This document shows, piece by piece, positions 30,702 to 55,024 of a DNA stretch of 64,000 nt (the stretch's first letter is position 1; each line of letters opens with the position of its first letter). The position numbers and the translations under genes were made by a program. The stretch covers positions 1,184,001-1,248,000 of the forward strand of contig OY759599.1 of the NCBI GenBank assembly GCA_963662465.1, written 5' to 3'. Origin of the DNA: Desulfatiglandales bacterium. GTDB taxonomy: Bacteria; Desulfobacterota; DSM-4660; Desulfatiglandales; Desulfatiglandaceae. The notes beneath the pieces were generated by a model. It worked only from the letters and a program-made list of their open reading frames with translations, did no database searches and was not told the DNA's origin.

Positions 30702-30707
30702 TATGCG

Positions 30708-37113: not shown

Positions 37114-37770
37114 TCAGCTGATAATTTCTAAAAATTCGGCAATGACCTGAATGCTGCCCTCATCTTCGCAGGTCAACTCAATGGGTTGAAAATCGGGATT
37201 GTTCGGTTTGAGGATAATCTTGACATGACGCCAAGTGCCATCTTCCGAGGCGGCCTTTTGGCTTTCATAACGTTTCACTGTGTAACGTTCGCCTGTCTCC
37301 GGATCCAGGTCATCAAGCAGCCCCACAACCACCGTCCTGCCTTGACGTGTTCCTGTGACCGGGGCCGCAAACAGGCAGTATGATCCGTTCGGTATGGACG
37401 GCTCCATGGATTTACCGACCACCTGGGCCACGAACATTCCCGGGCGCAATCGTCGGTGCGTGTCGATTTCCACCCAATCCCATTCTTCCGTATCCAGGCG
37501 CTGCGGGTCGCTGAATGCCCCTGCGGCAAGCTTGAGAGGCACCAGCGGTATGCAGTTGACGTAGCGGTCTTTTTGGCGTGCTTGCACAATCCTGAGGACC
37601 GTTCGCTCCTTTGTTTCTTCTGTCTTATCTGCCTGTTCGAACCACGAGGTATCTTTGCGGATTGCGTCCCGCAAATGATCTTCACGCAGATACCCTGCGA
37701 GTTTGCGGAAGTGCCGTGTCATAGCGCCTTCATCATCCAGATCGCTCACAACAATCTCAATTACTTCGTA
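37114..37770 (-). CDS. S24 (LexA/UmuD-type) peptidase domain; probably the frameshifted C-terminus of the upstream helicase
   Basis: LAAG, VVGKSMEP.I.NG and YTVKR. The frame is open upstream as EYEVIEIVVSDLDD, overlapping the helicase end. Confidence 0.8.
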   Translation of the reverse strand, partial: YEVIEIVVSDLDDEGAMTRHFRKLAGYLREDHLRDAIRKDTSWFEQADKTEETKERTVLRIVQARQKDRYVNCIPLVPLKLAAGAFSDPQRLDTEEWDWVEIDTHRRLRPGMFVAQVVGKSMEPSIPNGSYCLFAAPVTGTRQGRTVVVGLLDDLDPETGERYTVKRYESQKAASEDGTWRHVKIILKPNNPDFQPIELTCEDEGSIQVIAEFLEIIS

Positions 37771-40700
37771 CTCGATTGTTGCGCAGCCAGGTGCGGATAC
37801 GCTGATCCTGCTCCGCTGTGTCGGGATTCCCGTGGATGTGGGTGCTTAACCCATCCAGGTAAATGCATACTCCTTCATCTTCGGCATGGTGGTCTGCACG
37901 ATAGATGATATCCGGCGTTGTGGTACCAATGGCCCTGTCCAGCCGAATCTGCTCACCTCGGACCCCTTCCTCAAATCCAGCGGATAGCAGCAGATGCCTG
38001 AGTTTTCGTTCTACTTCGTTGACCGGGTGGGTTCCTTCCGAAGGCTCCTCAGAAGGCCGTTTGGCGGCGATTTCGTGAGCCGGCTTAATCCGGTTACCCC
38101 AGGAACGCAGGTTCTCCCATGCCAATTCCCGGTTCAGATATTTGTGATAGTAACCGTTCCGGAATGTTTGGAGACAGTCCACACAGGAGGTGTCGCAGGC
38201 GGAAGGGCAGGTTTCAACAATTTCAACGGCATGGTTGACCACCTTGTCAAAACACTCGCAAATCTGGTCAATGAGGCCGGAACCGCCCGGCATGGGATCC
38301 CATAAGAGGCCGTCTACTTCATCTCGATCCACATGCCCGATGACCAGAATCTGAAGGTCTTCCATATGCATGTCCAGCACGCTTGTGGCAGCTATGCGCA
38401 ACGTCTCCAGAACACTGTAGGCGGTTTGCTGATCCGGGCAGGCAGGCAGGGACAGTACATCGGCGACTACATCGGCATAAAACCCGACCGGCGCCGGCGG
38501 CCGACCGCACCGTTCTTGGTGAGACTGGTCAAAATGGTTTCGCTGTTTGTCTGAAGAAAGCGGAGAAATACTCTGTCCACAAACCCTGCAGACCGGGTAG
38601 CCATAACGGCCAAACCGTTCAATGGCGGAATTGGCGCCCACATTGACCAGTCTCAACCTCACTCCTCGGCGGTGATGCAGGGCGTGAGGCCCCCAATTGT
38701 AAGCCTTGCCGCCGTTATGCTGATCGCGCTCGATACCGTAAACCGCCACGCCCATCTGAAACCGCAGCTCTTCTTCATCGGATATGTGGGATTGGTGGAC
38801 CAAATCCACGTCGCAAACGGCAATGGTCTGTAAAATCGTTGCACCCAGTGCCCCGGGAGTGGCTCCCGCGTTGGTTTCCTTGACGGCATGTCTTTCCGTG
38901 GAAATTTCAAAGACCGGCATTTCAGCACGTTCTTCATCCACATCACGGTGGAAGCGCCTGGCAACAAACCGATTGCCGTTGGCGTAGATGAGATTTCCGG
39001 GGACATATTCGCGCAGGGCCACACTGGGAGGCCGGGGCAGAGCGAACTCCATGGCTCCGGTTCGCCAGAAGGGTATTTCCGCGGTACCCAGAACCGACCC
39101 TCTTTCGAGGCCGTACCCCGGCAAAAACCCTTCGGCGGACAACACGCCGTAGGTGTTCACGTCATCATAGCCTTCCGCTTCCCGGCGTCTTCGCCGGATG
39201 GTGCCTTTCAGCCGTTTAACCAGGGTATCGCAGCGGCGAAAAAGCGTATCGTCCTCAGGTTCGAGATCTCCCTGCTTTTCCCGCAGCAGATTCAGCCGTT
39301 TAATCTGAGCAAGCGCCCACTGGAGTCGCCTTGAAAGGCGGCCGATGACAGCCTCAAGTTCGGATACCATTGTGTGGATATGGTTCAATAGAACTTCGGG
39401 CTTTGTCACCTCGGCATCCGCTTCCGGCCAGCCCTGGCTGAAGGCGGCTGTCACATATTTCATCAGGTCCTTCTCGCATCGACCCATCAGGATTTTGAGG
39501 GGAGACAGATCAAAAATCTGTTCTCGAACCAGTCCGTCTTCAAACAAATAGGATGAAATCCGATCCGGCAGGCAGGTTTTCAGCGTATCCCTTATGTTGT
39601 TACGCTGTTCGTCCGTCAGGGAACTATCACGTATGTACTGGTGCAATCGGGAAATGACGGTGGCGTGAACGTGTTTGGCCACCATCAGGTCATTTCTCAG
39701 GTTAAACGCCGGCGGGTCTACCCGGCCTGCCAGCAATTTAAAAGGATCGGCAAAATAGGCTCGGTCGTGGGATACCGATCGGCAGTAGGTCAGCCCCACC
39801 GCCATGCGATGGCGTCTGCCTGCCCGGCCCGCCCGTTGCCAGTAATTGGCTGGAAGCGGCGGGACGTTGCGCATGAGCACCGCGTCCAGTTGCCCGATGT
39901 CTACTCCCAGCTCCAGGGTCGGCGTACACACAAAGGCGTTAACCGCTTCAGAGTTTCCTTTGAATAGATTTTCCAGGCGCTCTCGTTCCTTGTGGGGGAC
40001 CATGGCCGTGTGTTCCTCCGGCCGCAGCATGGCGTAATTTTCATCAAGCAGTTGCAGGTTGTAGTTGTCTTTGTCTTCCTTTACAAATTGGAGTTCACCG
40101 TTGCATCGCCAGGAGAGACACAACTGCCCGGGTGTTCGGCGGGTGGAGGTTCTTCGGCAGCTTTTACAGCGCCATACCCCGTGGTTTTGCTGGAGTCGAA
40201 GCCGGTCCGCGTTGACTTGGTAGACCCCGCTAAGATTCGGAAGGGCGCCACCCCTTGACCCTTTGAGCTGGACCGGGGTCAAAAATGTTTCATCAACAAG
40301 AAAGTGAAAAAGTCCCTCAAGAAACGGTTCGATATTTTCCGGTGGAAGGCCCCATTTCCGGGCGATTTGGCGCATGGTGGTATCGCCCTGATCACTGATC
40401 CACTGGATAACAAGGGTTGATTTTTCCGGTGGTTCACGCCTGAGTTTGGTCCCTACCGGGTTGCCGATCTGGGGCAGATACCCTTGCTGCACTTCCAGAT
40501 CACCGTCCATCCAGTATTTGCTGAAGATCTCCCGTTCCGGATCGTAAAGCACATGCCGACGCCGAAGGTAGTCGAGAAGGCTTGCCACCCCTTCCCGCAG
40601 GTCTTCCGCCGGCATGCCTAGCGAATCGGCGTTTTTCTGAATCCATGGCAATGTTGCGGCAAGACCTTCATAGTCCACTTTCATACGGCCCCACGGTTCG

Positions 40701-43036
40701 AGACCGAAAGCCTGGCGCGAAGACAGGGTCACTTCCCGCAGCACCTGTATGCGTAAAAACTTTCGTCTTTCCTGTTCGTGACGACCGCCCCCACCTTCTT
40801 TTCGTACGACCAGCCACACTTCGGGTACGAGGGCGCGCGACAAGGATTCGTCCGCTTCAAGGGCGTCGTCGATGCGCCGTGACAAGTCCCCGACAGACAG
40901 GGGGCCATCCTTCAGGCCTTCCATCATCAGGGCCCGAAGTCGAAAGCGTCTTGCGTGGTCTTTCATCCAGCCGGCTTGAAAAGCGGCATCCTGGCGGTTG
41001 TCGCAGAAGACCAGAAGCCTTTGACGTTCTGAATTATGCACCATGTCCTGGGTCAGGACGTGGACGTCGGCCACGTTGGTTGCCCGGACGGGCCTCGCCG
41101 GTTCGCGATACCGGCCTCCAATGCGTCGCCCGTTAGCGCCGCAGGACAGACAGCTCGTCAGCACTCCCGGATTATCCCTTTTTTGACGCACGGCAAACAA
41201 TTCAACCGTCATGCCGGTTGCCCCGCAGTGCCGGCACCGTCCGGCTTCCCCAGGGTGGGCGGCCCCGCAGTACCGACAAAAGTGAAGGGGTTCGGTTCGG
41301 GCATGGTCTTCAAGGTTTTCATCGTCGCTGCCGCCGATGAGCCGATCCAGCAGGAGTACGCGATGCCCTCCCCGGGATTCTTCCAACGGTTCCCAATAGT
41401 GGCTGTCTCCAGCTGCTTCGCCGCCACCGGGTTTTTTCCGGGTGTATTCAAAATCCTTCAAGAACGAGACAAAATAGTGTTGGCCGCAGGTGGTGCAGGT
41501 GGTCACCGGAAAGTGGGCATGCTTTTCCTCTCCCTCGGCTGCTTCGATTTCGTCTTCGGCCGCCAGCCAGAGCCTGGGGACATTTCCGTTGACCGGAAAG
41601 TTCACCACCGCACCGCTGATGCCCCGAACAAATCCATGAACCACAGGCCTGAGCAGTGGGCGACCATCCAGGCGTGCGGCAGCCCCCAGGGACAGCCATG
41701 CGAGGATTTCGGCTTCGCTCACCGGGCGGCCCAGCTTTTCTTCCAGTTCGGAGGGAAGGCTGCGGAGTTCCCGGGGTGTGGCCAGGGATTCATTTAACTG
41801 AAAGGCCAGTTCGTTTTTAGACAGGTCCTGATGCAGGGCAACGGGCCAATCAAGCGCATCGTCCAGAGTTTTGCCTGCCAGATCCTGATAAACTTTACGA
41901 ACAGCCTCCCCGGTCTCGTCTTCAACGGCTGCCACGCATGCACTCAGTAATTGTGCCGGTTCAGAGCCCGGAGTGGGCGGGGTCGTACGTCCGCCGGCCC
42001 ACACTTCGGGTTCATAGGCTTCACCGACCGTTGTCACTTCCGATCCGGACACGCCGAAAAAACGGGTGGCAAAGTCGCGGGCGGCCTCCGGATTTTCCTG
42101 GTCGACAATGGTAGCCGATGTGGCCACACAGACCGAATCCTGCTCCTCCCGACCGCAAAATGCCCGCAGCCGCCGGATGAGGCAGGCGGTTTCAGACCCC
42201 TGAGCGCCGGTAAAGGTGTGCGCTTCGTCGAAAACGAGAAAGTCGAGGCGTGCGTCCGTGAACAGTTCGATGTCCCTCTGGCGGGTGAGCAGCAGCTCCA
42301 GCTGTTTGACATTGGTCAGCAGAATGCGCGGCTGTTTCCCCGCCGTACGCATAATCTCCCGAGAACAGACCTCCTCCCGCGGGTGAACCGTTTCACCGGT
42401 TCTTTTTTCGCTTCGTATCTTTGCCAACTCGGCTTCATAGTCAGCCCTCGAACTTCCTTCCGGCATTCGTCGCCCGGCCACGTTATTTTCCCGCTCCGGC
42501 GTCTTTCCCACGTACATGCCGAAGGGGATGCCTGTACCGGCGAGCAGAGATCTGAGCCGACCCAGCTGATCCTCTGCCAATGCGTTCATGGGATACACGA
42601 TGACGGCGCTGATGCCGGCAGACGCCCCCATGTCTCTCAGTTCCAGGCACTTGCTCACGATGGGATAGAGAAAACATTCGGTCTTGCCCGATCCGGTGCC
42701 GGTGGAAACCAGGGTTGTGCGCCCGGCATGGATGGCGCGTATGGCCTCTTCCTGGTGGCCGTAAATATGGGTGATGGCTTCGGGAATGCGCCGGCGCATG
42801 TGGGAATGGAAAATACCTTCCGAGATGAGATTCTCCACTGAAACACCCTGCCTAAAGGGACGGGACAAACTGATGTAAGGCCCTTTCAATAAGGGCGACT
42901 GTCGCGTCTGATCCAGGGAGAGCAATTGTCGCATCTGGGCATGAAGGGCTTTATCGGCAAAGGGGTAGGCCGTGAGTTGGTATCGCAGGAAATTGCTGAC
43001 GACTTTTTCGGTGAAAGCAATGGGGTTTAGTGCCAT
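37757..43036 (-). CDS. Large DEAH-box helicase with Zn-binding motifs, DUF1998 and a C-terminal Vsr/DUF559-like nuclease (DrmA+DrmB-like content)
   Basis: TGTGSGKT, YPMNAL..DQ, DEAH, TPTLELGVDIG, QRAGRAGR, multiple CxxC, D..PGGSG..C..AC..SC.DCL and PDI..IYLDG..H. ATG 43036 follows TAAGGA. Confidence 0.88.
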   Translation of the reverse strand: MALNPIAFTEKVVSNFLRYQLTAYPFADKALHAQMRQLLSLDQTRQSPLLKGPYISLSRPFRQGVSVENLISEGIFHSHMRRRIPEAITHIYGHQEEAIRAIHAGRTTLVSTGTGSGKTECFLYPIVSKCLELRDMGASAGISAVIVYPMNALAEDQLGRLRSLLAGTGIPFGMYVGKTPERENNVAGRRMPEGSSRADYEAELAKIRSEKRTGETVHPREEVCSREIMRTAGKQPRILLTNVKQLELLLTRQRDIELFTDARLDFLVFDEAHTFTGAQGSETACLIRRLRAFCGREEQDSVCVATSATIVDQENPEAARDFATRFFGVSGSEVTTVGEAYEPEVWAGGRTTPPTPGSEPAQLLSACVAAVEDETGEAVRKVYQDLAGKTLDDALDWPVALHQDLSKNELAFQLNESLATPRELRSLPSELEEKLGRPVSEAEILAWLSLGAAARLDGRPLLRPVVHGFVRGISGAVVNFPVNGNVPRLWLAAEDEIEAAEGEEKHAHFPVTTCTTCGQHYFVSFLKDFEYTRKKPGGGEAAGDSHYWEPLEESRGGHRVLLLDRLIGGSDDENLEDHARTEPLHFCRYCGAAHPGEAGRCRHCGATGMTVELFAVRQKRDNPGVLTSCLSCGANGRRIGGRYREPARPVRATNVADVHVLTQDMVHNSERQRLLVFCDNRQDAAFQAGWMKDHARRFRLRALMMEGLKDGPLSVGDLSRRIDDALEADESLSRALVPEVWLVVRKEGGGGRHEQERRKFLRIQVLREVTLSSRQAFGLEPWGRMKVDYEGLAATLPWIQKNADSLGMPAEDLREGVASLLDYLRRRHVLYDPEREIFSKYWMDGDLEVQQGYLPQIGNPVGTKLRREPPEKSTLVIQWISDQGDTTMRQIARKWGLPPENIEPFLEGLFHFLVDETFLTPVQLKGSRGGALPNLSGVYQVNADRLRLQQNHGVWRCKSCRRTSTRRTPGQLCLSWRCNGELQFVKEDKDNYNLQLLDENYAMLRPEEHTAMVPHKERERLENLFKGNSEAVNAFVCTPTLELGVDIGQLDAVLMRNVPPLPANYWQRAGRAGRRHRMAVGLTYCRSVSHDRAYFADPFKLLAGRVDPPAFNLRNDLMVAKHVHATVISRLHQYIRDSSLTDEQRNNIRDTLKTCLPDRISSYLFEDGLVREQIFDLSPLKILMGRCEKDLMKYVTAAFSQGWPEADAEVTKPEVLLNHIHTMVSELEAVIGRLSRRLQWALAQIKRLNLLREKQGDLEPEDDTLFRRCDTLVKRLKGTIRRRRREAEGYDDVNTYGVLSAEGFLPGYGLERGSVLGTAEIPFWRTGAMEFALPRPPSVALREYVPGNLIYANGNRFVARRFHRDVDEERAEMPVFEISTERHAVKETNAGATPGALGATILQTIAVCDVDLVHQSHISDEEELRFQMGVAVYGIERDQHNGGKAYNWGPHALHHRRGVRLRLVNVGANSAIERFGRYGYPVCRVCGQSISPLSSDKQRNHFDQSHQERCGRPPAPVGFYADVVADVLSLPACPDQQTAYSVLETLRIAATSVLDMHMEDLQILVIGHVDRDEVDGLLWDPMPGGSGLIDQICECFDKVVNHAVEIVETCPSACDTSCVDCLQTFRNGYYHKYLNRELAWENLRSWGNRIKPAHEIAAKRPSEEPSEGTHPVNEVERKLRHLLLSAGFEEGVRGEQIRLDRAIGTTTPDIIYRADHHAEDEGVCIYLDGLSTHIHGNPDTAEQDQRIRTWLRNNRVRSN

Positions 43037-43061
43037 GGCATAGTCCTTAATATCTATAGGG

Positions 43062-45728
43062 TCAGTGGGTCCAGATTTTACGGGATAGTGCAAGGACCCT
43101 TGGTCGAGCGCCTGCCTTCAATCTGAACCCCAGTCCGGTCCGAAAAATTTCCGGCATATAATACGCTTCGTTTTCCCCATATGCGATTCCATTATTTTCA
43201 AGGGCTTTCAATTCGTCAATACTCAAACCGACCTCTTCCCTCAAAAATGGTATTTGTCGATGTTCGTCGTTTAATTCACTAAGTTTGTTGAAAATATCTT
43301 TTAATTCATTGTTTTCAATGCCGATTTCATTTATCTTTTCCTTGCTGCAAACTTGCAGAGCGCCTCTTATGGCGGTCGGCGCCAAAATTCGATCTTTCCA
43401 GAAAACGTCCTTTTCCGAATCAACAGCGGCCTGGTGCAGGAATCGAACAAGATCTCTCGCCTGAGTCTGTCCCTTTAAATCAGAAAGGGCTGCGATTACC
43501 CAGTTTGCGGATCTTGCTTCTCTTGAACCTTCACTGCCGAGTTTTCTCCCCCATAGTGCTGCGAGGGCGTGCGTCAAGGCTTCTTTGTTTAATTTTTGCA
43601 GCGCTTCTTTTTCCAGAGTCGCCAGCGCTCCGGACTGAACGCCGACCCAGGCTGCCAGTCGAAGTGCCTCTTCAGGACTCCACCTTAGCGCATGAGGCTC
43701 ATATCTGGCCATCAGTTGAGGCGCATTTTGTTTAACGGCCGTCAGGACCATATCCTGGCGAATGAAAACCAAAAGTCCAATGTTGCGGTCCGGCTGTTGC
43801 TCAAGCCATTCCGGCACTTCTTGAATTAAAGAACGAATGGCCGTCTGTTGGCGGCGATTTGAGGATAGATCCTGGAATTGATCTTCGAGGCCGTCAATGA
43901 TCGGCAAAATACTTTTTTTCTGTCTGGTCAGGTAAGCTGGAAATCTTTTTCCGGCACCCTTTTCAAAAACATCAAAGCCTGCGCTCCATGCCAGGATATC
44001 AATCCATAGTTCCCGCCAATCCCCTTCGTGAAGGTCTTCCTTTAATCTCTCTCTTATATGGTCATATATGGCTGACAGCTCAGGCAGATTCTCGAAACCC
44101 AGCGATTTTCCTGCATCGGTTCTTGTTTTAAGAACAAGCGTGTTTGTGTCGGATGCGATATTTTTTGATTTCATGACCGGGCAGATGAGTGCCGTTATGG
44201 GGCTTCCGGAAATGCCGACATCGTTAATAAATTGTGCCCAATTGTTTCTGAACACCACCTGGAGAAATGTGTAAGTTTTTCCGGATCCTTTTGCGCCGAC
44301 AATCACCGAAACGGGTATCTTTGCCATAAAATCCGAGGCAAGATTTTTGAGTGGCGGTATTGATAAAAACTCTTTCAGTGCACTTGTTTCGGCATAGATA
44401 AGTTTTTTTGAAAATGCCGCAAGATTTTTGCGCTTTGAGATGCTGTTTTCTATGACTGCGTCAATTTCTCCCGTTTTGGAGGGGAGGAGGGGAAGCCATT
44501 CTAACAGCGGGTTCAATTCATCGGTCAGCCCCGCCTGCAAAATTCGCTTCATGACGTCTGCCCAACTATTGGGAAGAACCTGGAGGGAACTTGAAAATGA
44601 CGTAACAATCCTTGGGATTTCGAGATCCTCTTTCCCATTTTTCACTTCCCAAATGAGTTGTGCCGCTTCAAGTACTCTTTCTTCGTGTCGGGCCACCAGT
44701 CCATTTTTAAGCAGATCTTCCGGCACTTGTGAGAAAATCACGGAAGGAACAGGTTCATCTTCTCTCTTTGAGGGCGCACGACTCCCCAACAGCTCAAGTT
44801 CCTGACAGGTTCCTTCGATGGATTGGCTGCTCAGAGTGGTAACAATCACTCTGAACACACGCGGGTCCAGCAAAAACCCGGTTGAAAGCTCCGAGAGTCC
44901 GGCGCGCAGATCAACCACTACCGCATCCACTCCGAGCTTGAATCCAAGCGCTGCAACGGCCTCCGACAAAATAAATGGATTTTCCGCCCCTTGAATCAAG
45001 TGTTCGGGCCGGATTTCCAGGGAAGTGAACTGGGCGCCGGTTCGAAAAGCAGGGAGGATATACATATTGTCAAGCAACATTTCCTTGAGACGATCCGCAA
45101 CAATATCGATGCCGGCTTTTCCATCGGAGGATGGATCACCATGAAGCAGCGCTAAAAAATCGGCAAAAGAAACGGAGGGGTTGGGAAATCTTTTTTTAAT
45201 CAGCCAGGTAACCCCCGGCGCTTCCAGATCCGCATCAATAAACAGAACTCGTGCATCATCCCGCTGGTTGGTGATGGCCCTGGCCATGGCTAACGCATTG
45301 ATAGTGCGCCCCACACCACCCTTAAATGAGTGAAAGGCAATCACAGGAGGTAGATGCGCAGCCATTCCCGGTGGAGAAGCCTCTGCTGGACTGCCGGACA
45401 GAAAGGATGGTCTTTGAAGGCTCGGTTTGAACTTTTGCCGCGGCGGTGCTTCCGTTGTCTCTTCGAAAACGATATCCAGAAGCCGTTTGCTGTCCGGGTT
45501 GCTTTCCAGGATAATTGCCGGTCTTTCATTATCAAACCTTGGTTCAAAGAGTTTTGCGAGCCATTCAACCAGTTCTTCTTTTTTTCCCGACCGAATTCCG
45601 AGGGTTAGACTGTCCCAGTAAGCGCGAACCCAGACCAACCCATCGGGCCAACGGCTTTTTTCCATGGCTGTTTGAATCACTTCTTCGGCATCTATCCAGG
45701 TGAACAAACGCGTATCCGATGGAAGCAT
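43062..45728 (-). CDS. ParA/MinD-like (KGGVGR variant) ATPase fused to a second P-loop NTPase
   Basis: FHSFKGGVGRT, IDADLEAPG and VDLRAG; second Walker A VGAKGSGKT and Walker B IIDGLED. Confidence 0.85.
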   Translation of the reverse strand: MLPSDTRLFTWIDAEEVIQTAMEKSRWPDGLVWVRAYWDSLTLGIRSGKKEELVEWLAKLFEPRFDNERPAIILESNPDSKRLLDIVFEETTEAPPRQKFKPSLQRPSFLSGSPAEASPPGMAAHLPPVIAFHSFKGGVGRTINALAMARAITNQRDDARVLFIDADLEAPGVTWLIKKRFPNPSVSFADFLALLHGDPSSDGKAGIDIVADRLKEMLLDNMYILPAFRTGAQFTSLEIRPEHLIQGAENPFILSEAVAALGFKLGVDAVVVDLRAGLSELSTGFLLDPRVFRVIVTTLSSQSIEGTCQELELLGSRAPSKREDEPVPSVIFSQVPEDLLKNGLVARHEERVLEAAQLIWEVKNGKEDLEIPRIVTSFSSSLQVLPNSWADVMKRILQAGLTDELNPLLEWLPLLPSKTGEIDAVIENSISKRKNLAAFSKKLIYAETSALKEFLSIPPLKNLASDFMAKIPVSVIVGAKGSGKTYTFLQVVFRNNWAQFINDVGISGSPITALICPVMKSKNIASDTNTLVLKTRTDAGKSLGFENLPELSAIYDHIRERLKEDLHEGDWRELWIDILAWSAGFDVFEKGAGKRFPAYLTRQKKSILPIIDGLEDQFQDLSSNRRQQTAIRSLIQEVPEWLEQQPDRNIGLLVFIRQDMVLTAVKQNAPQLMARYEPHALRWSPEEALRLAAWVGVQSGALATLEKEALQKLNKEALTHALAALWGRKLGSEGSREARSANWVIAALSDLKGQTQARDLVRFLHQAAVDSEKDVFWKDRILAPTAIRGALQVCSKEKINEIGIENNELKDIFNKLSELNDEHRQIPFLREEVGLSIDELKALENNGIAYGENEAYYMPEIFRTGLGFRLKAGARPRVLALSRKIWTH

Positions 45729-45729
45729 T

Positions 45730-46244: not shown

Positions 46245-49200
46245 TCAATCAAAAAGTCCCATCTGGCTCATTTCACCATTATTGGCATAGGCAGCTTCTT
46301 TCTCAGCCATTCGGTTCGGCGATTCTATATTGTGGCCGGCTGCAATTTTTTGATAGGGCGCCTCCCCGACCTGATCGCGGATGATCTTGTGCCAGGGGTG
46401 GTCGGTTAGGTGCGGCAGTGAAGCCAGCAGTTTCTCAAGGGCGGCATTGAACCCGGTTTCCCCGAGGTACTCTTTGGCGGCGGCAAGGGCTTGTTTTCGG
46501 TTCTCTTTGGGAACTCTCTTCAGCGCATCGGCGATGATCTGGACCATATCGGTATGGCTCCAGGCAAACCCCCGGTTATTTAAAATCCTTCGGGATTCAT
46601 CCAGTCGGTCGCGCCACGTCTGGGGGTCCATAAATACGATGGCAGTGGAGAAAACTTCACATAGATGCGCCTTTTCCTCCAGATCAAAGGCCAGGTAAAG
46701 AGCATCCTCCCAGCCCCCGGACGGCGTATCCCGAAGAACTTCTCCCAGCAGTTTCAAGTAGCCGCTCCGCCCCAACAGGTTCCGAGCATGGAGGTGGCAT
46801 TCCCGCCAGGATTCGTCAGGGCTTTGGGCGAGCTGCCAGTCGTAGAAGCGGGGTCCGAGGCGGCCGGCCACAGGCTGGTGTTCCTTGGCGCGATCGTCGT
46901 GGCCGAGGCCGTAGTCGGCCAGCCGCAGGGTCTCGGGGAGTATCCACCCTTCGCCGTCGTTCTGCTTGAGGAAGGCTTCAATGCCCTTGTTCCGGTCGCC
47001 GCCGCATTCTTGGATTTTTTGTTCCAGGTCGTGAAAGGCGACGAGGGTGAGGACGGTGTGGCGAAGTTCCGGGTCTTTGTCTTTGTCGACGCGCCAGAAG
47101 CCTTTTGGATTAATTATAGCTGTGAATTCTCTATCGCTAAATTTTGTTAATGGGGCATCACATTCCTTCAAAATGTTGTGTAGATCATTGGAGGAAAGAC
47201 GATAAAGAGCAACTAACACGGCATCAATAGTAACGTTTGCACGCAGTCGCTCAAAGTCAGTGACATACCATGTCTTCGGGCTGTAAGAGAGATCTTGCTG
47301 GTTACTAAATGAATAATTGGCTAAGGTAATTGCAACTGGCGAAAATAGCCATGAAGCCATATTCATATTCATTACCCATTTGCTTAGGACAGATATGATC
47401 TCCAAAGACAAAATAGGGATTGGCATCGCTGTGAGGCTGGCGAGATCAATGTTTGTCCCTCCACACCGATCTCGTAGAATCGAGTCAAATACAAAGGAAT
47501 TTAAGACAGCAGTTAAAATCAAATCTTTTTGCGATTCATTTGTCGTCAGTATTGGAGACTTGTCCCCAGAGGGGTGCCCCATGTCAACAGTAGAAATCAT
47601 AGTTCTGGCATCGGTATTTCTAGCAACGCGTCTATGGACAGACCTAAGCTTGATCCGGGGAGCGTCTCTATAATTCATCAAATACTGTGGGGAAATAATT
47701 TTATTTGCCCATTCGATTGGCTTCCATTTTGCGAGAAGACCTGTCCCTGAGATCCATCCCTTTTGGCTGAAATCGAATCGATGAATCATAACGCCTTGCA
47801 TGAATGCTACTGCCATATCCTCAATCTCATTTTCCCGGATCCATGCATCCACTTCCCGTGAAAGGATAATACCTTCAGGAATATAAACACGGGGAATGGG
47901 CAGGCGATCATAAGGCGGTTGGGCACAAAGGGTTTCGCCTTCTATCAGAGGTTCAACAGCCAAATCCTCCCAAAGCTCGTTAATCGGCCGCCATTCCCCC
48001 TTGAGCCACCGGCTGTATTCATCCGGCCGGTAGCCCTGGGCCTCCCATTTCGGCCTCGGCGGAAAGAGTTTGGAATCACTGGTCATGTTGAAATCGCCTT
48101 GCGCGTATTTGATGCCCCAACTGTCGGGACCATTATCCCCCAAGAGTACGGAATTGGAGTAGATTTTTTCAAGGATTTCGAGATCGCGGCCGGACTGGAT
48201 TTCCAGAATGGCCATGGTCCAGGGACTGAACTGTGTCACCTGTTCTCGGCGGTATGGCGTGGCGAAGGCTTCTCCCCGTTCCCAGTCTTCCAGTTTCCGC
48301 CGCATGAAGGCGGTTTGAATGGCATCGGTCTGGCCACCCTTTTCAATGATGACGGGGTTGAATTTGAAACGGCTGTCAATCTGAAAAACCTTGTCTCGGT
48401 TCTCGAACCCGAAAAGCCATTCCCAGCGGCAGTGATCAAGAAAAAGCTCTCTCAGCGCCCTTGTGCCATGATCCGAGTATAGCCCAGACGGCACGATAAA
48501 CCCTAAACGTCCCTTATTGCACAAAATATGATGTGCATGTTCAAGGAACAGCTTGTATGTATATGCCTTTCCTTCTCCCCTATGGCGGAATGGGTGGTCT
48601 GGGGAAGCGTAGGCGACACTTTTTTCTCTTGCAGCTCTCCAGTTATCGTGAAGAATAATGTTCCTATTTCCTCTAACAATTGAGAAACGGTCAGTGCTTT
48701 TTGTTGTGCTTTCAGGATCACCAAAAGGTGAGCCAGCAAATTTCATCCAGTTTGAATCGCAAACAAAACCGCCTGTATAATTAAGCCATTTACGTTCGGT
48801 TTCTTCTTCTTTGAAATAGGTTGTCTGAAAGCGCAATGCTTCCTGTTTACCGTAGGATCGATACAATGGATCAATATTCGAAAAGAACTCCATTGAGTTG
48901 GGTTGAAGGGTTTCCCAGGGCGGATTTCCCAACACCGCATCAAAACCGGACCCCTTGGCTCGAAACACATCCGGAAATTCCAGGGCCCAGTGAAAAAAGC
49001 GTTTGTTCGTCGTAACCCGGTCCGCCACGGCCCAGGTCTCATGGGAAGGCTCGGCAAAGGTGGTGGGCAACGGGGCAAGGCCGATTTGGTCCGGTGGCCA
49101 GAACCAGCAGGCGCACCAGAGGTCCATAGCCGCTTTCAGAGAGCAATAGGCATCGGAGCCCACAAATTCTTCCCGGTACATCCGGGCACGCCGGGCGCTG

Positions 49201-51770
49201 TCCTTCACGGGTAGGTCATGCAGGCGGGAGAGAGTGGCCAGGGCCGCGTCATGCCTGGCGGCTGCTTTTTTCTGAAATTCCTCCGCAAACCAGGCCTTGT
49301 TTTTGAGGAAAGTCTCAAGGTCCGGCGTCAAAATGTCTTTGACAAACGCCTTGATTGCTTTTGTTCTCGTCTCCTTTTGATAATGTACCCCATTGGTATG
49401 GCCCTTATCTCCGCCCTCCCGGTTCTTCCACGCCATCACCGGATAGTGTGAAAACTGGTCAAACCACGTTCCCACCAGGCTGTTGCCGCATTTGATCTTG
49501 TGATCCAAAAAGGAAAAGGGGAGCTCACGATCCATGGTCTCGATCCACAACGCCAGTCGGCACAACTCCACGGCCAGGGGATCCAAGTCCACGCCATAAA
49601 TGCACCGTTCCACCACAAACCGCTTGAGCAGTGATTTGGTTCGAGTCTCGAAATTTTCACTGTCCGGAGACCCGGGCAATCGGGTGTCCGTCAGCTTTTC
49701 TTCCGCTTGGGGGTTTTTTAGCCCCAATAATTTCTCCAGGGGGCTTTTCCAGTCGTCACCGACCCGGTTGTGGGTAAACAACGACCGAAAAAGGGCTTCG
49801 GTCAGAAATCTCAGGGCGGCCACGGGGAATGATCCCGAACCGCAGGCCGGATCACAGACCTTGAGGGCAAGGATCTCTTCGGGTTTCCTGGGTGCCCATT
49901 CGCTGGTTGGGGCGTTCGTGTTCGGTTTCCCATCTTTGTCCAGGGGCGGCACGTAGGCCAGGGGGCGAAGGGTGCGCATGACCGTGGGAACGGCCAGGCC
50001 GGGTCGGGTATAAAAGGTCCCCGCACCTTTTCGAGTGCCGCCCCAGCGCACCAGATACCATTCACCGGGAAGTACCACACGGGACACCAGTTGACGAGCC
50101 TTGCGAGAAATATTTTCTTCGTGGACCAGCTGTTTTTCGGGCGTCATTCCCCCTTGGGGTCGGGACACCAGTTTGCCCATGTCCACTGCTTTTCGGGCCC
50201 AGGTTTCAGCTCGGGTGCGGATGGTGTGACGTGTGTCTTCCGCCGTCTCCACATTAACATCCACACCATCATCGGCATCCTTGTCTTTCTCGGAAGCATC
50301 CCCTTCATCCGCTGCCGGCTCAATGGAATCCGCTTCGGTTTCATCGTCCCCGCTACTGGTATCTTTCATTTTCTCCAGCAAATCGGCCAGGGCCTTGTTG
50401 TCCATGGCCTCCAGGCGGGACAGGGGCAAGGCAGGCTGATTGCCGATGGAGAGAAACACGACAGGATCACCGGACGGAGCGGTTTTGAGTTCGAAATCCA
50501 GCAACCCCTCGTACAGGATGCCGATGTATTCGCTGGACAGGTCCGAAAAATCAACGGGCGCCGGAACCCAGATACTGCCCCGGCCCTGGCGTACTTTGAC
50601 ACGGGTGCGGGTGATACGTTCAATCAGGCGCAGCACCTCACGGTCGCTCATGATCTCCCGGTGAAAACAGGCGTTTTCCAACACGGCAATCGCTTTTGCC
50701 ATTGGGTCGGCCGAATCCGTGTTTCCAGGCATAAAAAGTTCGCCGCCATATTGGGGAACCGGCAATGCGGGATGATGGGAACCCTGAAAGACCAATCGGA
50801 ACAGCCCCAGTATTCGAGGCCAGGCATTCCAGGATCGGGAAAGACGTCCGCTGCCGCGAGCGGCTGTTTTTTCCAGCGATTCCCGCAGGCCGGTGATGCC
50901 GTAGGCGGTATGGTAGAGGGTATTGTCCCGGGGCAACAGTTCACGGGATTCCGCAAAGAGTACCACCACGATCCGCATGACCATCCGCACGGCGGCGCGG
51001 TAGATGTCCTCGGGGGTCCCCTGGGGGCATTCTTCTTTTAGCACCTCGCCATGGGCCTGAAGGAGAATTTCCACGGCCTCGCGGACCCTCTCTCCCAACT
51101 CGGTGGACAGGTCGGCCTGGCCTTTGCGGCTGTCTAAAACCGCCTGAAGCAGCGGCGCCGCTTCTTTTTCAGCAGTTGGAATCCATGCCCCCGGCGATAG
51201 CAATGTGCGAAGGGCTGTTACCTGGGGAGACAATTCCCCTTCCTCGAACCACAGGTCCACGTCCCATTCGCACCAGGCGTCGAAATCAAGCCCGGCAAAT
51301 ACCAGCCGCCACTGGCGACCGTTGGTGATCACAGCCAGACGTTCCGAACCTGCTCTAAGCCACTGAAGCACCTGGCTGGCGGCCTTTCGGCCCCGTCCCA
51401 CCCCCACGCGTTTTTCCGTATCCAGAAAAACGGGCAGCAATCCGCCATTGGTTCCTTGCCAGAGCTGTCTGGGCTTGATGGCTTCGCCGGTGACGGCGCG
51501 GCGTGTCCAGTGTGTCCCCATCCGGTTTCCGCGACGCCAAGTACCCAAATTGCTGGAAAAACCGCAGATCGTCTCCAAAACAAATGCGACAAATTCCGGA
51601 ACATCCGCGTTCTGATCCATCAGCGCATCGACCCGTCGGCGCAGCTGGTCTCTGAAGTAAACAGGCAGCGGTTCCGGAATCATTTCGGCGATCCGGTCTA
51701 ATCGCTGTGTATCGAGGAGCAGTCCGCCGTGGCGCAACCGTTCCCAACCGAACTCTCTTACCGAGCTCAT
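46245..51770 (-). CDS. Type IIG/Eco57I-like N6-adenine DNA methyltransferase (DrmMI-like)
   Basis: ITNGRQWRL, GILYEGLL, RK..GTFYT, DPACGSGSF, IYGVDLDP.AVEL and GFDAVLGNPPW. Confidence 0.9.
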   Translation of the reverse strand: MSSVREFGWERLRHGGLLLDTQRLDRIAEMIPEPLPVYFRDQLRRRVDALMDQNADVPEFVAFVLETICGFSSNLGTWRRGNRMGTHWTRRAVTGEAIKPRQLWQGTNGGLLPVFLDTEKRVGVGRGRKAASQVLQWLRAGSERLAVITNGRQWRLVFAGLDFDAWCEWDVDLWFEEGELSPQVTALRTLLSPGAWIPTAEKEAAPLLQAVLDSRKGQADLSTELGERVREAVEILLQAHGEVLKEECPQGTPEDIYRAAVRMVMRIVVVLFAESRELLPRDNTLYHTAYGITGLRESLEKTAARGSGRLSRSWNAWPRILGLFRLVFQGSHHPALPVPQYGGELFMPGNTDSADPMAKAIAVLENACFHREIMSDREVLRLIERITRTRVKVRQGRGSIWVPAPVDFSDLSSEYIGILYEGLLDFELKTAPSGDPVVFLSIGNQPALPLSRLEAMDNKALADLLEKMKDTSSGDDETEADSIEPAADEGDASEKDKDADDGVDVNVETAEDTRHTIRTRAETWARKAVDMGKLVSRPQGGMTPEKQLVHEENISRKARQLVSRVVLPGEWYLVRWGGTRKGAGTFYTRPGLAVPTVMRTLRPLAYVPPLDKDGKPNTNAPTSEWAPRKPEEILALKVCDPACGSGSFPVAALRFLTEALFRSLFTHNRVGDDWKSPLEKLLGLKNPQAEEKLTDTRLPGSPDSENFETRTKSLLKRFVVERCIYGVDLDPLAVELCRLALWIETMDRELPFSFLDHKIKCGNSLVGTWFDQFSHYPVMAWKNREGGDKGHTNGVHYQKETRTKAIKAFVKDILTPDLETFLKNKAWFAEEFQKKAAARHDAALATLSRLHDLPVKDSARRARMYREEFVGSDAYCSLKAAMDLWCACWFWPPDQIGLAPLPTTFAEPSHETWAVADRVTTNKRFFHWALEFPDVFRAKGSGFDAVLGNPPWETLQPNSMEFFSNIDPLYRSYGKQEALRFQTTYFKEEETERKWLNYTGGFVCDSNWMKFAGSPFGDPESTTKSTDRFSIVRGNRNIILHDNWRAAREKSVAYASPDHPFRHRGEGKAYTYKLFLEHAHHILCNKGRLGFIVPSGLYSDHGTRALRELFLDHCRWEWLFGFENRDKVFQIDSRFKFNPVIIEKGGQTDAIQTAFMRRKLEDWERGEAFATPYRREQVTQFSPWTMAILEIQSGRDLEILEKIYSNSVLLGDNGPDSWGIKYAQGDFNMTSDSKLFPPRPKWEAQGYRPDEYSRWLKGEWRPINELWEDLAVEPLIEGETLCAQPPYDRLPIPRVYIPEGIILSREVDAWIRENEIEDMAVAFMQGVMIHRFDFSQKGWISGTGLLAKWKPIEWANKIISPQYLMNYRDAPRIKLRSVHRRVARNTDARTMISTVDMGHPSGDKSPILTTNESQKDLILTAVLNSFVFDSILRDRCGGTNIDLASLTAMPIPILSLEIISVLSKWVMNMNMASWLFSPVAITLANYSFSNQQDLSYSPKTWYVTDFERLRANVTIDAVLVALYRLSSNDLHNILKECDAPLTKFSDREFTAIINPKGFWRVDKDKDPELRHTVLTLVAFHDLEQKIQECGGDRNKGIEAFLKQNDGEGWILPETLRLADYGLGHDDRAKEHQPVAGRLGPRFYDWQLAQSPDESWRECHLHARNLLGRSGYLKLLGEVLRDTPSGGWEDALYLAFDLEEKAHLCEVFSTAIVFMDPQTWRDRLDESRRILNNRGFAWSHTDMVQIIADALKRVPKENRKQALAAAKEYLGETGFNAALEKLLASLPHLTDHPWHKIIRDQVGEAPYQKIAAGHNIESPNRMAEKEAAYANNGEMSQMGLFD

Positions 51771-54700
51771 GATTCACCTCCCGGCAAGCGGACTTCAATA
51801 CAGACCGGAAACACTTGGGCGGCGCCGGCCAGCAAATGGCGTTTGGGCAGAAGGTGTTTTACGATTCGCTCCCTTTCACGATCCAGCTGGTCGCGTACCT
51901 CCACATAATGGCGTGTGCGCCGGGCAATCTCATCCTGTCTTTCCTGGATTGACCGGTCAATGGCTGCCAGCCGCTGTTCCTCGTTAAACAGGAACCCCTG
52001 CTGTCTTTCCATTTTCAATTGGGCCACTTCACGTTCAAGCCTGGCCAGGGTGTTTTCCGCAATGAGACTGGAGACTTCACCTCGGCGGCTGCGGTAGCGT
52101 TCTTCCTCTTTCTTCAGGGCGTCAGCGCCGGATTTTTCAAGTTGAAACTTGAGTTGTCGGGTAAGGTCTTTCCCATGGGCAGAGAGAAACGCTTTCAGAT
52201 CCGGTTCCACATCTTCTAAGATCTCCCGTGCGCGGGTGATGAGGGCGGGTGCTTCGATTTTCCCGACCGGGCGAAGGTTCATGGTGGGGCGATGGGGCAA
52301 GGGCTGGCTCAGATTCCCCTGATGAATGGGGAACACCAGGGTTCGAACCCAATGGTGAAAGGTTTCGCGCAATGCATTGACGGCCAGTTCCTCAACGCTC
52401 AGCAGCACCAGAGCATCGGCGCCGGTCGGCACACTCCCCAATGCTGCAGTCCAGCGCGACACGCTCTCTCCGGTTCCGGGAAACCGGCAACGGGTGAGCG
52501 CACCGAGGGCACGTTGAAGCATGGGGTGGGACAGGTGTATGAAGCTTACATCCGGCAGCGGGTAAAACACCAGGCGATCGCCCATTTGACGAAGAAAGGG
52601 ATCCGGACTGAAAGCCAGGCGGGCGACCGGTCCCCGGGTTGAATTGCCCGTTTTGGTCCGAAGAGACTCATCAATGACCTCGCTCCAGCCCGGCAGAGAC
52701 GGGTTGAGTATCTTACAGGTGTTGTCCGGCGTTTCGCAAGCCATTTGGGGGCGCTCGGCGCGAATGGCCATGGCCGCCTCCAGGGTTTCCCGCAGGGCGT
52801 TCGGATCCAGGTCCATTTCAGCAGCCAGAGCCTTGAGGCGGTTGCCGGCATCACGACCCTCTTCGCCTGTTTCCGTGGTGGCATCGGCATCCATGGAAGC
52901 CCTTCCCCGGGCTGCATCCACCCGTCGATCCAGGTCGGCCTGAACCGCCGTAAGGCTTTCACCATCCACCAGACGACGGTGGGCCGCTTCGTCAAAGATC
53001 TCATTGGCTGAGCCTAGGTCCTCCCGAATTTCGTGGGCCTTGCCGATGACGTGGGACAAAAACCTGAGGTCCTGGTCCTGATCGCTCACAAAGTGGTAAA
53101 CCGTCACATCGCGGGCCTGGCCGTGGCGATCCAGACGGCCGTTTCGCTGTTCCAGCCGGGAGGGGTTCCAGGGACAATCGAAATGAAGAAGGTAACGGGC
53201 TGAGCGTTGCAGATTCAGCCCTTCGGCGGCGGCATCCGTGGCCAGCAGGATACGAACGGAGTGTTTAGGATCGTTAAAAGACTGTTTAACCAGATCCCGT
53301 TCGCTCTCGTCCATGCCACCGAAAAGGGTGAGGATACGGTCCGGTTCGTAGCGCTCGCGCAGGCGCCGAACAAGATAGTCCAAAGTGGTTTTATACTCGG
53401 TAAAGACCACGAGTCGTTCGTCGTCCCGCCACCCGCCGTCGGTGTGCAGCAGCCTTTGGATGAGACCATTGAAGACAGTAAAGCGCGTGTCGGCAGTTGG
53501 TGTTTGTTCTGCCACATCAGCCGCTTCAAGGTTGAAGCCCAGACCGGATACTGCCAGGTCCAGGGCGGCGATTTCCTCTTTCATTTCAGGAGCGACGGCC
53601 TTCAGCCACGCGCCAACGACCCCGGAAGCAATGGATTCCCGAGATTGGGCTTCCCGATCATCGCCGGTGTCGCGCTGAACGCTTTTCCGGGATGCCTCCA
53701 CTTCGGCATCCTCAGCGGGCCGTTCTTCCCGGAGCCCTTCCTTGCATCTCCGCCACGATTCGGCAAAGGCTGTAGGACAGCTCAACAGGCGTTTTCCGAG
53801 GATCTCAACGGCAAAGCTGCCGGCCCTGCGCCGTTTATGGAGGGTACCACTGATCAGTTTTCGTATTTTCGTGCGGAAGGCGTCAAAGGCGACGGAGAGC
53901 GCCGTTTCCATAGGCGTTAGGGGCAATGTGAGGGCCTGGGGCAGGTTCCGGGTGCAGAATTTGGGTGGATCGGTTCGCGCATTGATATCCCGTTTCAGTC
54001 GACGGAGTACCACCTGTTGGACGCGGCTTTTTTCAGCGGGTTTGAGTTCGTTGGTTTGACTGAAGCGAACCGGATCGAGGATTTCCAGAAGCCCGGTAAA
54101 ACATCGGGTGTGGCCGTTGTGGGGGGTGGCGCTGAGAAATAATCGGTGTTCGAACTGTGGGGCCAGAAGGCGTAGCATGCGACAGAGGTCGCTGTCGTCA
54201 CCGAATGCCGAGGGCATCAGGTTGTGGCATTCGTCCACAATGAGGAGGTCCCACGGCAGGTGAGGGGAACCCTCGGGTGTTCGACAGGCGGCCAGAAATT
54301 GCTCCAGCACGTCATCCTGGCGCAGGTAGTGGTAGGAGGTAATGATGCGGCTGAAGGAACGCCACGGGTTGGCGTCCATGCCGAGGCGCTTTCTGAGATT
54401 GTGGGTTTCAGCCCGGTCCACCAGATTGAAGGTCAGGGCGAATTTCTCCCACATTTCATCCCGCCACTGAAGGCGGAGCGATGCCGGTGTGAGGATCAGG
54501 ACCCGTTGGATGCGCCGACGCAGCAGAAGCTCACTTAAGATCAGGCCCGCCTCCACAGTCTTTCCGAGCCCCACGTCATCGGCGATGAGCAGGTTGACCC
54601 GCGGCATGAGCAGTGCCTTCAACAGCGGCACCAGTTGGAAGTCCTCGATCTGGACCGCTCCGTGAAAGGGGCTTGATATGGGCTTTCTGTCCAGAGGCCC

Positions 54701-55024
54701 GTCGCCGTCCGGGTCCAGGTAGGGCATGGCGGCCGTCCATCGTGAGGCCCGAAGCAAGGCATCGAAGTCGTCTCTCGGCATGGGATCCGTGCTGCTCGAA
54801 AGGGGCAGGGCTGTCGGTTCAAGCAGGTTTTTGTGCGGTTCCAGCTCCCAGAGAAGTTGCTCTTCAATGGGATACTGGTCGTCTTTGTATTCCAGATGAA
54901 CCAGGTGCAGACGTCCGGTATCGCCGTCAAACGGCTCGACGGCCGCCACGATGCCGCGCCTGTTGCGGACGGTGGCAAACATGCCGGTGCGAGGGATTGA
55001 AGTTGCCATAACGGTATGGGTCAT
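51767..55024 (-). CDS. drmD: SNF2-family helicase (DrmD-like)
   Basis: LLIADDVGLGKT, IVDECH, LSATPHNG, VFTEY..T, ATDAAAEGLNLQ and WNPSRLEQRNGRLDR. ATGA overlap with the MTase. Confidence 0.85.
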   Translation of the reverse strand: MTHTVMATSIPRTGMFATVRNRRGIVAAVEPFDGDTGRLHLVHLEYKDDQYPIEEQLLWELEPHKNLLEPTALPLSSSTDPMPRDDFDALLRASRWTAAMPYLDPDGDGPLDRKPISSPFHGAVQIEDFQLVPLLKALLMPRVNLLIADDVGLGKTVEAGLILSELLLRRRIQRVLILTPASLRLQWRDEMWEKFALTFNLVDRAETHNLRKRLGMDANPWRSFSRIITSYHYLRQDDVLEQFLAACRTPEGSPHLPWDLLIVDECHNLMPSAFGDDSDLCRMLRLLAPQFEHRLFLSATPHNGHTRCFTGLLEILDPVRFSQTNELKPAEKSRVQQVVLRRLKRDINARTDPPKFCTRNLPQALTLPLTPMETALSVAFDAFRTKIRKLISGTLHKRRRAGSFAVEILGKRLLSCPTAFAESWRRCKEGLREERPAEDAEVEASRKSVQRDTGDDREAQSRESIASGVVGAWLKAVAPEMKEEIAALDLAVSGLGFNLEAADVAEQTPTADTRFTVFNGLIQRLLHTDGGWRDDERLVVFTEYKTTLDYLVRRLRERYEPDRILTLFGGMDESERDLVKQSFNDPKHSVRILLATDAAAEGLNLQRSARYLLHFDCPWNPSRLEQRNGRLDRHGQARDVTVYHFVSDQDQDLRFLSHVIGKAHEIREDLGSANEIFDEAAHRRLVDGESLTAVQADLDRRVDAARGRASMDADATTETGEEGRDAGNRLKALAAEMDLDPNALRETLEAAMAIRAERPQMACETPDNTCKILNPSLPGWSEVIDESLRTKTGNSTRGPVARLAFSPDPFLRQMGDRLVFYPLPDVSFIHLSHPMLQRALGALTRCRFPGTGESVSRWTAALGSVPTGADALVLLSVEELAVNALRETFHHWVRTLVFPIHQGNLSQPLPHRPTMNLRPVGKIEAPALITRAREILEDVEPDLKAFLSAHGKDLTRQLKFQLEKSGADALKKEEERYRSRRGEVSSLIAENTLARLEREVAQLKMERQQGFLFNEEQRLAAIDRSIQERQDEIARRTRHYVEVRDQLDRERERIVKHLLPKRHLLAGAAQVFPVCIEVRLPGGES

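Follow-up and report, generated by a model that had tools for sequence, protein, structure and literature searches.

An ARMADA type I-like operon with a HINPO-like cassette between its methyltransferase and helicase genes in a Desulfatiglandales bacterium

Six genes on the minus strand

The region studied here is a window of 64,000 nucleotides (nt) from a Desulfatiglandales bacterium (assembly GCA_963662465.1, contig OY759599.1, positions 1,184,001 to 1,248,000), and the subject of this report is a gene cluster at positions 37114-55024 of that window. According to the list of open reading frames (ORFs), the cluster consists of six co-oriented minus-strand ORFs arranged head to tail, which a sequence-only reading of the same DNA had taken for an undescribed defence operon related to DISARM. 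The tight packing of five to six co-oriented ORFs over about 18 kb that this reading described was borne out, with its overlap and gaps. Very likely, the cluster is an ARMADA type I operon that carries a HINPO cassette in the slot between its methyltransferase and helicase genes, both systems being predicted to act against phages and plasmids. Known parts are combined here in a new way, and the locus represents no new kind of system. Its features are given below by window coordinates, strand and product.

51767-55024, minus strand: P1, ArmA-like SNF2 helicase (DrmD/BrxHII/RapA-like), 1085 amino acids (aa)
46245-51770, minus strand: P2, ArmB-like giant N6-adenine DNA methyltransferase (PglX/DrmMI/type IIG-like), 1841 aa
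45730-46137, minus strand: P3, PA-HEPN1-like small HEPN-fold protein, 135 aa
43062-45728, minus strand: P4, fusion ATPase with a putative iNTase part, a ParA (KGGVGR) part and an ORC/STAND part, 888 aa
37757-43036, minus strand: P5, ArmC-like helicase (YprA/DruE type) of 1759 aa with DUF1998 and, at its C-terminus, a Vsr-like nuclease region that the frameshift truncates
37114-37749, minus strand: P6, Peptidase_S24 ORF, 211 aa
37114-37776, minus strand: LexA/UmuD-like S24 tail, predicted to cleave itself, out of frame with the helicase P5
37774, minus strand: one-base insertion (frameshift) splitting the P5 helicase-nuclease from the S24 tail
43037-46244, minus strand: cargo slot between methyltransferase and helicase, here holding the HINPO cassette

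P1 and P2 overlap by 4 nt (51767-51770), the start of P2 overlapping the stop of P1. A single nucleotide at 45729 separates P3 from P4, and 25 nt (43037-43061) separate P4 from P5, given a P5 start at the ATG at 43036. Read from a TTG start, the P5 ORF spans 37757-43093 and encodes 1778 aa; read from the ATG it encodes 1759 aa and has the N-terminus MALNPI..., which is common to three relatives.

The SNF2 helicase, methyltransferase and helicase-nuclease

The three large proteins were compared with family models, and all statements on PADLOC cover the 25 best families for each protein. P1 matched the NCBIfam model DISARM_DrmD (NF038317) at 679.9 bits, above the cut-off of 610, and RapA at 160 bits; its PADLOC scores were 666.9 bits for DrmD and 252.6 bits for BrxHII. 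A Walker A motif (DVGLGKT) and a DECH box at residue 264 are present. The Hma system was considered and rejected, with HmaA at 228.7 bits on the SNF2 protein versus 666.9 for DrmD and no Hma model among the 25 PADLOC matches listed for the helicase. P2 was matched by Pfam Eco57I (85.8 bits) and, below threshold, by an MmeI methyltransferase domain, and it contains the S-adenosylmethionine-binding motif DPACGSGSF at 640 (GSGSF at 644) and NPPW at 949. The PADLOC model for DrmMI (PDLC02643) gave 428.9 bits, and the PglX models gave weak matches (E 8e-7 in PADLOC and 1e-5 in NCBIfam).

P5 contains the Pfam domains DEAD, Helicase_C and MZB/DUF1998, a Walker A motif (GSGKT) at 134, a DEAH box at 289 and seven CxxC motifs. 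The fusion of helicase and DUF1998 in one polypeptide, as the sequence-only reading had it, was confirmed; the PD-(D/E)xK-like nuclease that it placed at the end of the protein may correspond to a C-terminal block of residues, TPD...YLDG...HIHGNP, invariant in 4 aligned homologues. P5 was 49% identical over its full length to P0241, a protein of Nannocystis pusilla (MBZ5708111.1). Of 401 genomes of the phylum, G241, G045 and G380 encode full-length homologues of P5 with 51-55% identity, and G335 encodes one with 36%, at the start of a contig, so that the genes upstream of it are off the record. The order SNF2 helicase, methyltransferase, helicase was kept in G241, G045 and G380 (loci L086, L087 and L089), with identities of 43-55% for the trio and with SNF2 homologues 46-51% identical upstream of the methyltransferase. 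It was also kept, in fragmented form, on a plasmid of the cyanobacterium Synechocystis (CP101713.1), and in 31 of the 64 metagenome loci fetched with the helicase alignment the methyltransferase lay upstream of the helicase on the same strand. One metagenome locus (L139) had a different order, namely helicase, SNF2 helicase, methyltransferase. The gene order was thus found elsewhere for the core, in other genomes and in metagenomes, and not for all six genes.

These three proteins are the parts of ARMADA. In the accessible text of Bell et al. 2025 (PMC12458937), ARMADA is made up of a YprA-like helicase with a Vsr-type nuclease at its end (ArmC), a BrxHII/RapA-like helicase (ArmA) and a PglX-like methyltransferase (ArmB); type I, with the order SNF2-methylase-helicase, is described from many archaea and cyanobacteria, and ArmD, a GajB-like helicase with a RelE domain, marks type II. 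MBZ5708111.1 is listed as an ARMADA Type I helicase in Table S1 of the same work. The locus in the window has the same three proteins in the same order, and it has no ArmD-like gene: what follows P5 downstream is limited to the S24 ORF, an ORF of 195 aa without family, and a helix-turn-helix (HTH) gene. Because of the 49% identity to the listed type I helicase, the gene order and the lack of an ArmD-like gene, the core is best assigned, on its sequences, to ARMADA type I and not to DISARM or Druantia. It differs from the described type I in its S24 tail, in the HINPO cassette in the armB-armC slot and in its frameshifted helicase. For an Escherichia coli type II comparator, a blastn search with 4 kb of the helicase gene against E. 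coli genomes gave no match.

The reading as a non-canonical class 1 DISARM would make P1 and P2 DrmD and DrmMI, with a fused DrmA-DrmB and a nuclease of its own in place of DrmC. Class 1 DISARM (DrmD, DrmMI, DrmA, DrmB, DrmC) does resemble the core in its DrmD-type SNF2 protein, here above the equivalog cut-off, in its adenine methyltransferase and in having a helicase partner that carries DUF1998, and the abstract of Bell et al. 2025 (PMC12458937) states that ARMADA shares two further proteins with DISARM. However, P5 matched the DrmA models only locally (best E 9.9e-14, residues 1035-1122, in PADLOC), versus 342.7 bits for DruE1 and 336 bits for DruE3, and with NCBIfam DISARM_DrmAL it reached 13.9 bits, where the cut-off is 999. 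A separate DrmB is lacking, since P5 is a helicase with a fused OB-CON-DUF1998 module, of the Druantia/ARMADA branch; no phospholipase D (PLD) nuclease gene (DrmC) was found in the six proteins or in the scanned neighbours by the domain scan, as the sequence-only reading had also noted; and the 49%-identical homologue is listed as an ARMADA helicase. Because the model scores already point the helicase to Druantia/ARMADA and not to DrmA, a DISARM of new composition is disfavoured, and we regard it as unlikely to a high degree.

The DruE scores are likewise the argument for a Druantia variant, in which the large helicase would be DruE and the other genes lineage-specific partners. The closest relatives of P5 in the PDB, 9tu7 and 9wae, are two chains of about 2000 aa deposited only as helicases, which we presume to be Druantia DruE. 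However, no partner model (DruA-D, DruH, DruM/F/G) was among the 25 best families of any of the six proteins, and the partners found here are the SNF2/methylase pair that defines ARMADA in the accessible text of its description. A Druantia variant is therefore extremely improbable.

The methyltransferase raises another alternative, a type IIG restriction-modification enzyme in which cutting and methylation would both be done by the 1841-aa protein, with the helicases as bystanders. The best PADLOC model of P2 is in fact a type IIG model (REase_MTase_IIG, PDLC03622; 1373 bits over residues 135-1248), and the Eco57I and sub-threshold MmeI matches agree with it. However, the SNF2 and methyltransferase genes share 4 nt, synteny of the trio extends over genomes and metagenomes, Pfam revealed no nuclease domain in P2, and a PDB sequence search returned no relative of solved structure. 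Moreover, all four genes were needed for defence by ARMADA type II in the published experiments (PMC12458937, accessible part). This alternative has, in our estimate, very little chance of being correct, and an ARMADA type I core remains the preferred reading.

Three side observations concern related helicases. In genome G045 a second DruE/YprA-like helicase, with an open frame of 1778 aa, lies about 15 kb from the ARMADA locus (L088, G045:C3:73401-93000) and is 26-38% identical to the window helicase in three matched pieces. In a metagenome locus (L124:3572-15295) helicase matches extend over almost 12 kb of one strand and point to two YprA-like helicase genes in tandem. Downstream of the helicase in L087 (1699-2661, G045), a DEDDh exonuclease-WYL fusion (RNase_T E 2.3e-32, WYL E 1.5e-12, PADLOC PDC-S48) replaces the S24 tail, and the 3' end of the operon may be another variable position.

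The embedded cassette and its slot

Between the methyltransferase and the helicase lie P3 and P4, which the sequence-only reading had called a HEPN-like protein and a double NTPase forming a separate module. P3 had no match in Pfam (E<=10), NCBIfam or PADLOC. Its AlphaFold2 model had a pLDDT of 94.6, and the five best matches of this model in VIA-align were all HEPN proteins (Z 8.8-9.8), in agreement with the HEPN-like label. The family of P3 comprised 694 representatives at E<=0.001, and the best 150 of the 694 were 79-242 aa long. Residues E37, K41, H65, H103, W106, R107 and Y108 were invariant, among them the polar set E37, K41, H65, H103 and R107. By its modelled fold and its context, P3 is a probable member of the PA-HEPN1 family.

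P4 has two P-loops, KGGVGRT at 136-142 and GAKGSGKT at 478. It matched the NCBIfam KGGVGR AAA model (NF047398) at 145.3 bits (cut-off 90) over residues 127-309, and KGGVGRT and the motif D165-x-D167...A170-P171-G172 were invariant in 63 sequences. With the AlphaFold2 model (pLDDT 83.8), the Foldseek matches included MinD/FlhG/FleN/Soj (E 1e-6 to 1e-4), ORC2 (1w5t with E 9.7e-5; 1w5t/1w5s about 1e-4), BrxC and RdrA. In the model of the whole protein, residues 1-125 fold as a helix, two strands, a helix and two strands. Our search for literature on KGGVGR or Sll1717 found nothing relevant. Of the checks that the sequence-only reading had proposed, the PADLOC scan gave matches to DrmD, type IIG, DruE and, weakly, PDC-M28; the small protein had no PADLOC match and only Foldseek matches at E>0.1.

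The two genes travel together. More than 1258 full-length homologues of P4 were found, and 59 genome loci were fetched with the P4 alignment from cyanobacteria, Chloroflexota, Acidobacteriota, Desulfobacterota-type metagenome-assembled genomes (MAGs) and Methanothrix. A P3 homologue lay directly upstream of P4 in 55 of these 59 loci (tblastn), and 2 of the 4 misses end at a contig edge. Homologues of P1, P2, P5, P6 or the next ORF were present in none of the 59 (tblastn, within up to 10 kb), and no other neighbouring family was common to more than 15 of them. Conversely, the P3-P4 cassette was found in none of the 64 metagenome helicase loci and none of the three genome loci with the trio. The G+C content of the cassette is 0.46-0.53 versus 0.54-0.61 in the flanking core genes, about 8 points lower. 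The middle pair is an independent cassette, and the claim of an embedded separate module is upheld. No repeats flanking it were found.

In a Thermoanaerobaculaceae MAG (L042:9596-12685), HEPN gene and double ATPase form one ORF of 1029 aa, a natural fusion which supports the view that the two proteins work together. A complex prediction for P3 with residues 1-460 of P4 (score 0.07, mark 0.32) bears on this neither way.

The cassette agrees with HINPO as described in the accessible part of the preprint by Li, Burroughs and Aravind (2026, bioRxiv 10.64898/2026.10.19.760177). There, a small PA-HEPN1 gene precedes that of a ParA protein whose N-terminal part is an inactive Pol-beta nucleotidyltransferase (iNTase); the ParA protein belongs to the ConB2 group, with Arg replacing the Walker A Lys and a PG motif after sensor-1; and an ORC/CDC6-STAND ATPase, in some cases fused with ParA in one protein, completes the system. 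The window has the small HEPN-fold gene upstream, a ParA domain with the Arg Walker A and PG motifs, and an ORC/STAND-like second ATPase in fused form. Relatives of the pair in our survey came mostly from filamentous cyanobacteria, Chloroflexota, Desulfobacterota and Methanothrix. Unlike HINPO as described, the cassette in the window is embedded inside another defence operon, and the accessible text of the preprint contains no occurrence of DISARM or ARMADA. The PADLOC candidate PDC-M28 may also be related, in that P4 matches its B and C models (PDC-M28B 42.8 bits over residues 126-191; PDC-M28C 33.8 bits over residues 711-820). However, both matches are weak and local, B and C are one protein in the window, and P3 matches no PDC-M28 model in PADLOC, A included; the accessible main text of Payne et al. 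2024 (bioRxiv 10.1101/2024.01.29.577857) does not name PDC-M28. The claim of an undescribed system was therefore not sustained, since the core matches ARMADA type I and the middle pair matches HINPO, as far as the accessible parts of both sources describe them.

Opposed to this nesting is the idea of one integrated, undescribed six-gene system, whose core would have the HEPN protein and the double ATPase as obligate partners. The tight packing on one strand fits it, as does an intergenic intrinsic-terminator signal not above chance. However, the core genes were absent within up to 10 kb from all 59 ATPase loci and the cassette from all 64 metagenome helicase loci, the cassette differs in base composition, and close relatives of the core (69-78% identity) have the slot empty or filled with other cargo. 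As a conserved unit the six genes are already refuted, and we consider such an obligate partnership most improbable. What had appeared as an 18-kb non-canonical DISARM is, in our preferred reading, two systems that have been named in preprints, one nested in the other, and should not be counted as a new system.

The slot itself was surveyed in 34 loci with the methyltransferase-helicase order (31 metagenome loci together with G241, G045 and G380). It was empty in 11, where the two genes abut or overlap, and filled in 23, with 852-5845 nt of unrelated genes. In a PADLOC scan of the cargo, 20 of 47 ORFs (from 20 of the 23 filled loci) matched a model at E<=1e-5. The cargo included the following.

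L107: KwaA and KwaB (Kiwa) with HEC-05 (PADLOC)
L120: AbiEi and AbiEii (PADLOC)
L128: HEC-05 (PADLOC)
L101: PDC-M43A/B (PADLOC)
L125: type IV restriction enzyme (PADLOC)
L141: ThsB-like TIR protein (PADLOC)
G380: HEC-03A/B with an RNA ligase
G045: PDC-S03/Uma2

In type I ARMADA, cargo is frequently placed at the armB-armC junction. That defence cargo can be embedded inside helicase/methylase systems has already been published, and HEC-03 was found active in the same study (Payne et al. 2024, bioRxiv 10.1101/2024.01.29.577857, accessible part). Because the slot holds Kiwa, AbiE, HEC-03 and HEC-05 elsewhere, the predicted immune role of HINPO gains support from guilt by embedding.

In the 3' third of the methyltransferase gene (46245-49100) the G+C content varies from 0.43 to 0.55, versus 0.58-0.61 in the 5' part, and L120 is the only relative with a match to the last 160 or so residues of P2. 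An exchange together with the cargo may have affected the recognition or C-terminal part of P2.

The LexA-like tail, the frameshift and the surroundings

P6 matched Pfam Peptidase_S24 (PF00717) at 32.5 bits (cut-off 23.3) and carries an LAAGAF site, a GKSM serine and a VKRY lysine. It is 32% identical to residues 1775-1968 of P0241, that is, to the C-terminal part of the listed type I helicase. In three-frame translation, the helicase frame ends at 37757 behind IRTWLRNNRVRSN; from IEYEVIEIVVSDLDD onwards the reading continues in the next frame into the S24 ORF. The nuclease region of P5 is truncated after ...IRTWLRN, while relatives read ...RGYEVIEIPFG... in one frame. In the alignment, five relatives with 69-78% protein identity were all one base shorter at 37774; a single frame covers P5 and P6 in L096, L097, L099-L103 and L105; and G380 encodes an intact helicase-S24 fusion of 2011 aa. 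These results bear out the frameshift that the sequence-only reading had suspected, and the S24 ORF is the LexA-like tail of the helicase itself, detached by an insertion of 1 nt that also removes the last elements of the nuclease region.

The extra base was present on contigs of runs X1 and X2, which come from one sample, possibly the source of the assembly, and on one 151-nt contig of depth 3 from X3, a run on a different sample from the same study and organism. It was absent from one 151-nt metagenome contig of X4, near-identical with one other difference. Because the X1, X2 and X3 contigs carry the extra base and the relatives are without it, the insertion is a feature of this strain's lineage. 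Programmed frameshifting was rejected, as the relatives encode one frame and the near-identical environmental contig of X4 lacks the base. The restriction arm of ARMADA is likely disabled or altered by the frameshift in this strain.

The tail is not peculiar to this locus. We searched with the C-terminal third of the G380 protein, a query that favours tailed proteins, so that the counts measure no prevalence: 109 of 121 proteins (the 120 best matches and P0241) had the tail. Among 110 tails including that of the window, the two alanines of the site were conserved in 110 and 110, the glycine in 108, the GxSM serine in 110 and the lysine in 109. Tail matches were also present in 15 of the 64 metagenome loci. 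Like LexA, UmuD and phage CI, the window tail has the Ala-Gly site, the GxSM serine and a VKR-like lysine; unlike them, it stands at the C-terminus of a helicase-nuclease of about 1800 aa and not on a DNA-binding repressor domain. S24, LexA, UmuD and peptidase are not mentioned in the main text and supplements of Bell et al. 2025 (PMC12458937), one file of which was accessible in part, and our literature search found no report of an S24 tail on a DUF1998/YprA helicase. As far as these searches reach, a conserved LexA-like tail on many ARMADA type I helicases is unreported.

The mode of action can be proposed by analogy. The experiments of Bell et al. 2025 (PMC12458937, accessible part) were on type II only, where all four genes and the Walker and NPPW motifs were needed and protection was direct and non-abortive. 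If type I acts in the same manner, host (self) DNA would bear a mark set by the methyltransferase at an adenine motif, and invading DNA would be engaged jointly by the SNF2 and YprA helicases and cut by the Vsr-like nuclease of P5, without death of the cell. The tail, judging from its residues, may cleave itself at Ala-Gly, as LexA does on filaments of RecA and single-stranded DNA, and would thereby tune or release the helicase-nuclease. As in the scheme proposed for HINPO by Li et al. 2026, the sensor of foreign DNA would be the ORC/STAND ATPase, the ParA domain with its Arg P-loop would assemble, and the HEPN protein could be a back-up RNase that brings dormancy or death if the first line fails.

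Several points weigh against the reading of the cluster as an ARMADA type I operon with a HINPO cassette. Besides the high type IIG score of P2, every mechanistic step for ARMADA type I, HINPO and the S24 tail is proposed by analogy, and the Vsr-like nuclease of P5 is predicted from conserved residues. For P3, helical bundles can match by arrangement alone at VIA-align Z values of 9-10, Foldseek gave nothing below E 0.1, and the canonical HEPN motif Rx4-6H is absent. For P4, the Sll1717 P-loop model (NF047389) scored 54.7 bits over residues 602-832, below its cut-off of 75, and residues 1-125 had no Pfam match at E<=10, so the iNTase assignment is putative. Scans of the sequence gave 12 promoter-like sites versus 10.5 expected and 31 terminator-like sites versus 25.9, neither above chance. 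Finally, the intact allele is represented by one 151-nt contig of depth 2 (X4).

A bolder proposal makes the LexA-like tail a switch for damage or infection: RecA filaments on phage or broken DNA would trigger Ala-Gly self-cleavage, by which the nuclease is licensed or released, and the neighbouring slot would recruit abortive back-ups such as HINPO, to be set off once this first line has failed. We advance it tentatively and think it rather doubtful. If true, a restriction-type defence would be tied directly to the SOS sensor, and HINPO would have its first functional context. The conserved tail suggests a testable link between RecA sensing and helicase-nuclease defence.

The surroundings differ on the two sides of the cluster. 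The stack of insertion sequence (IS) elements that had been reported next to the operon was found on the upstream side only, with a DDE transposase (55813-57294), a Transposase_29 gene (58057-60324) and a DUF6431 gene (60478-61275); metabolic genes occupy 29331-35671. A ParD/ribbon-helix-helix antitoxin-like ORF of 81 aa (55296-55541, minus strand; Pfam ParD_antitoxin E 3e-5), situated between the IS element and the SNF2 gene, overlaps a 103-aa ORF without family (55423-55734, minus strand), and the two may be the remnant of a toxin-antitoxin pair. Near the S24 ORF, a 195-aa ORF (36351-36938, minus strand) had no Pfam or PADLOC match and no homologue in 123 related loci, and an HTH_3/MqsA-like regulator gene (35991-36317, plus strand) lies just downstream of the S24 ORF. 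Farther away, a 326-aa reverse transcriptase (10267-11247, plus strand; RVT_1 E 3.8e-44) is situated in a low-G+C stretch (0.35 at 8-10 kb), with DUF6431 and DDE_5 transposase genes after it; a retron, a group II intron and a reverse transcriptase of the defence type are all possible identities. A PIF1-like helicase of 849 aa with HRDC and HTH_40 domains (22452-25001, plus strand) and an AAA_14/DUF4143 ATPase of 455 aa (27893-29260, plus strand) were also found. Together with the reverse transcriptase and the IS copies, these two genes suggest a wider island of acquired genes.

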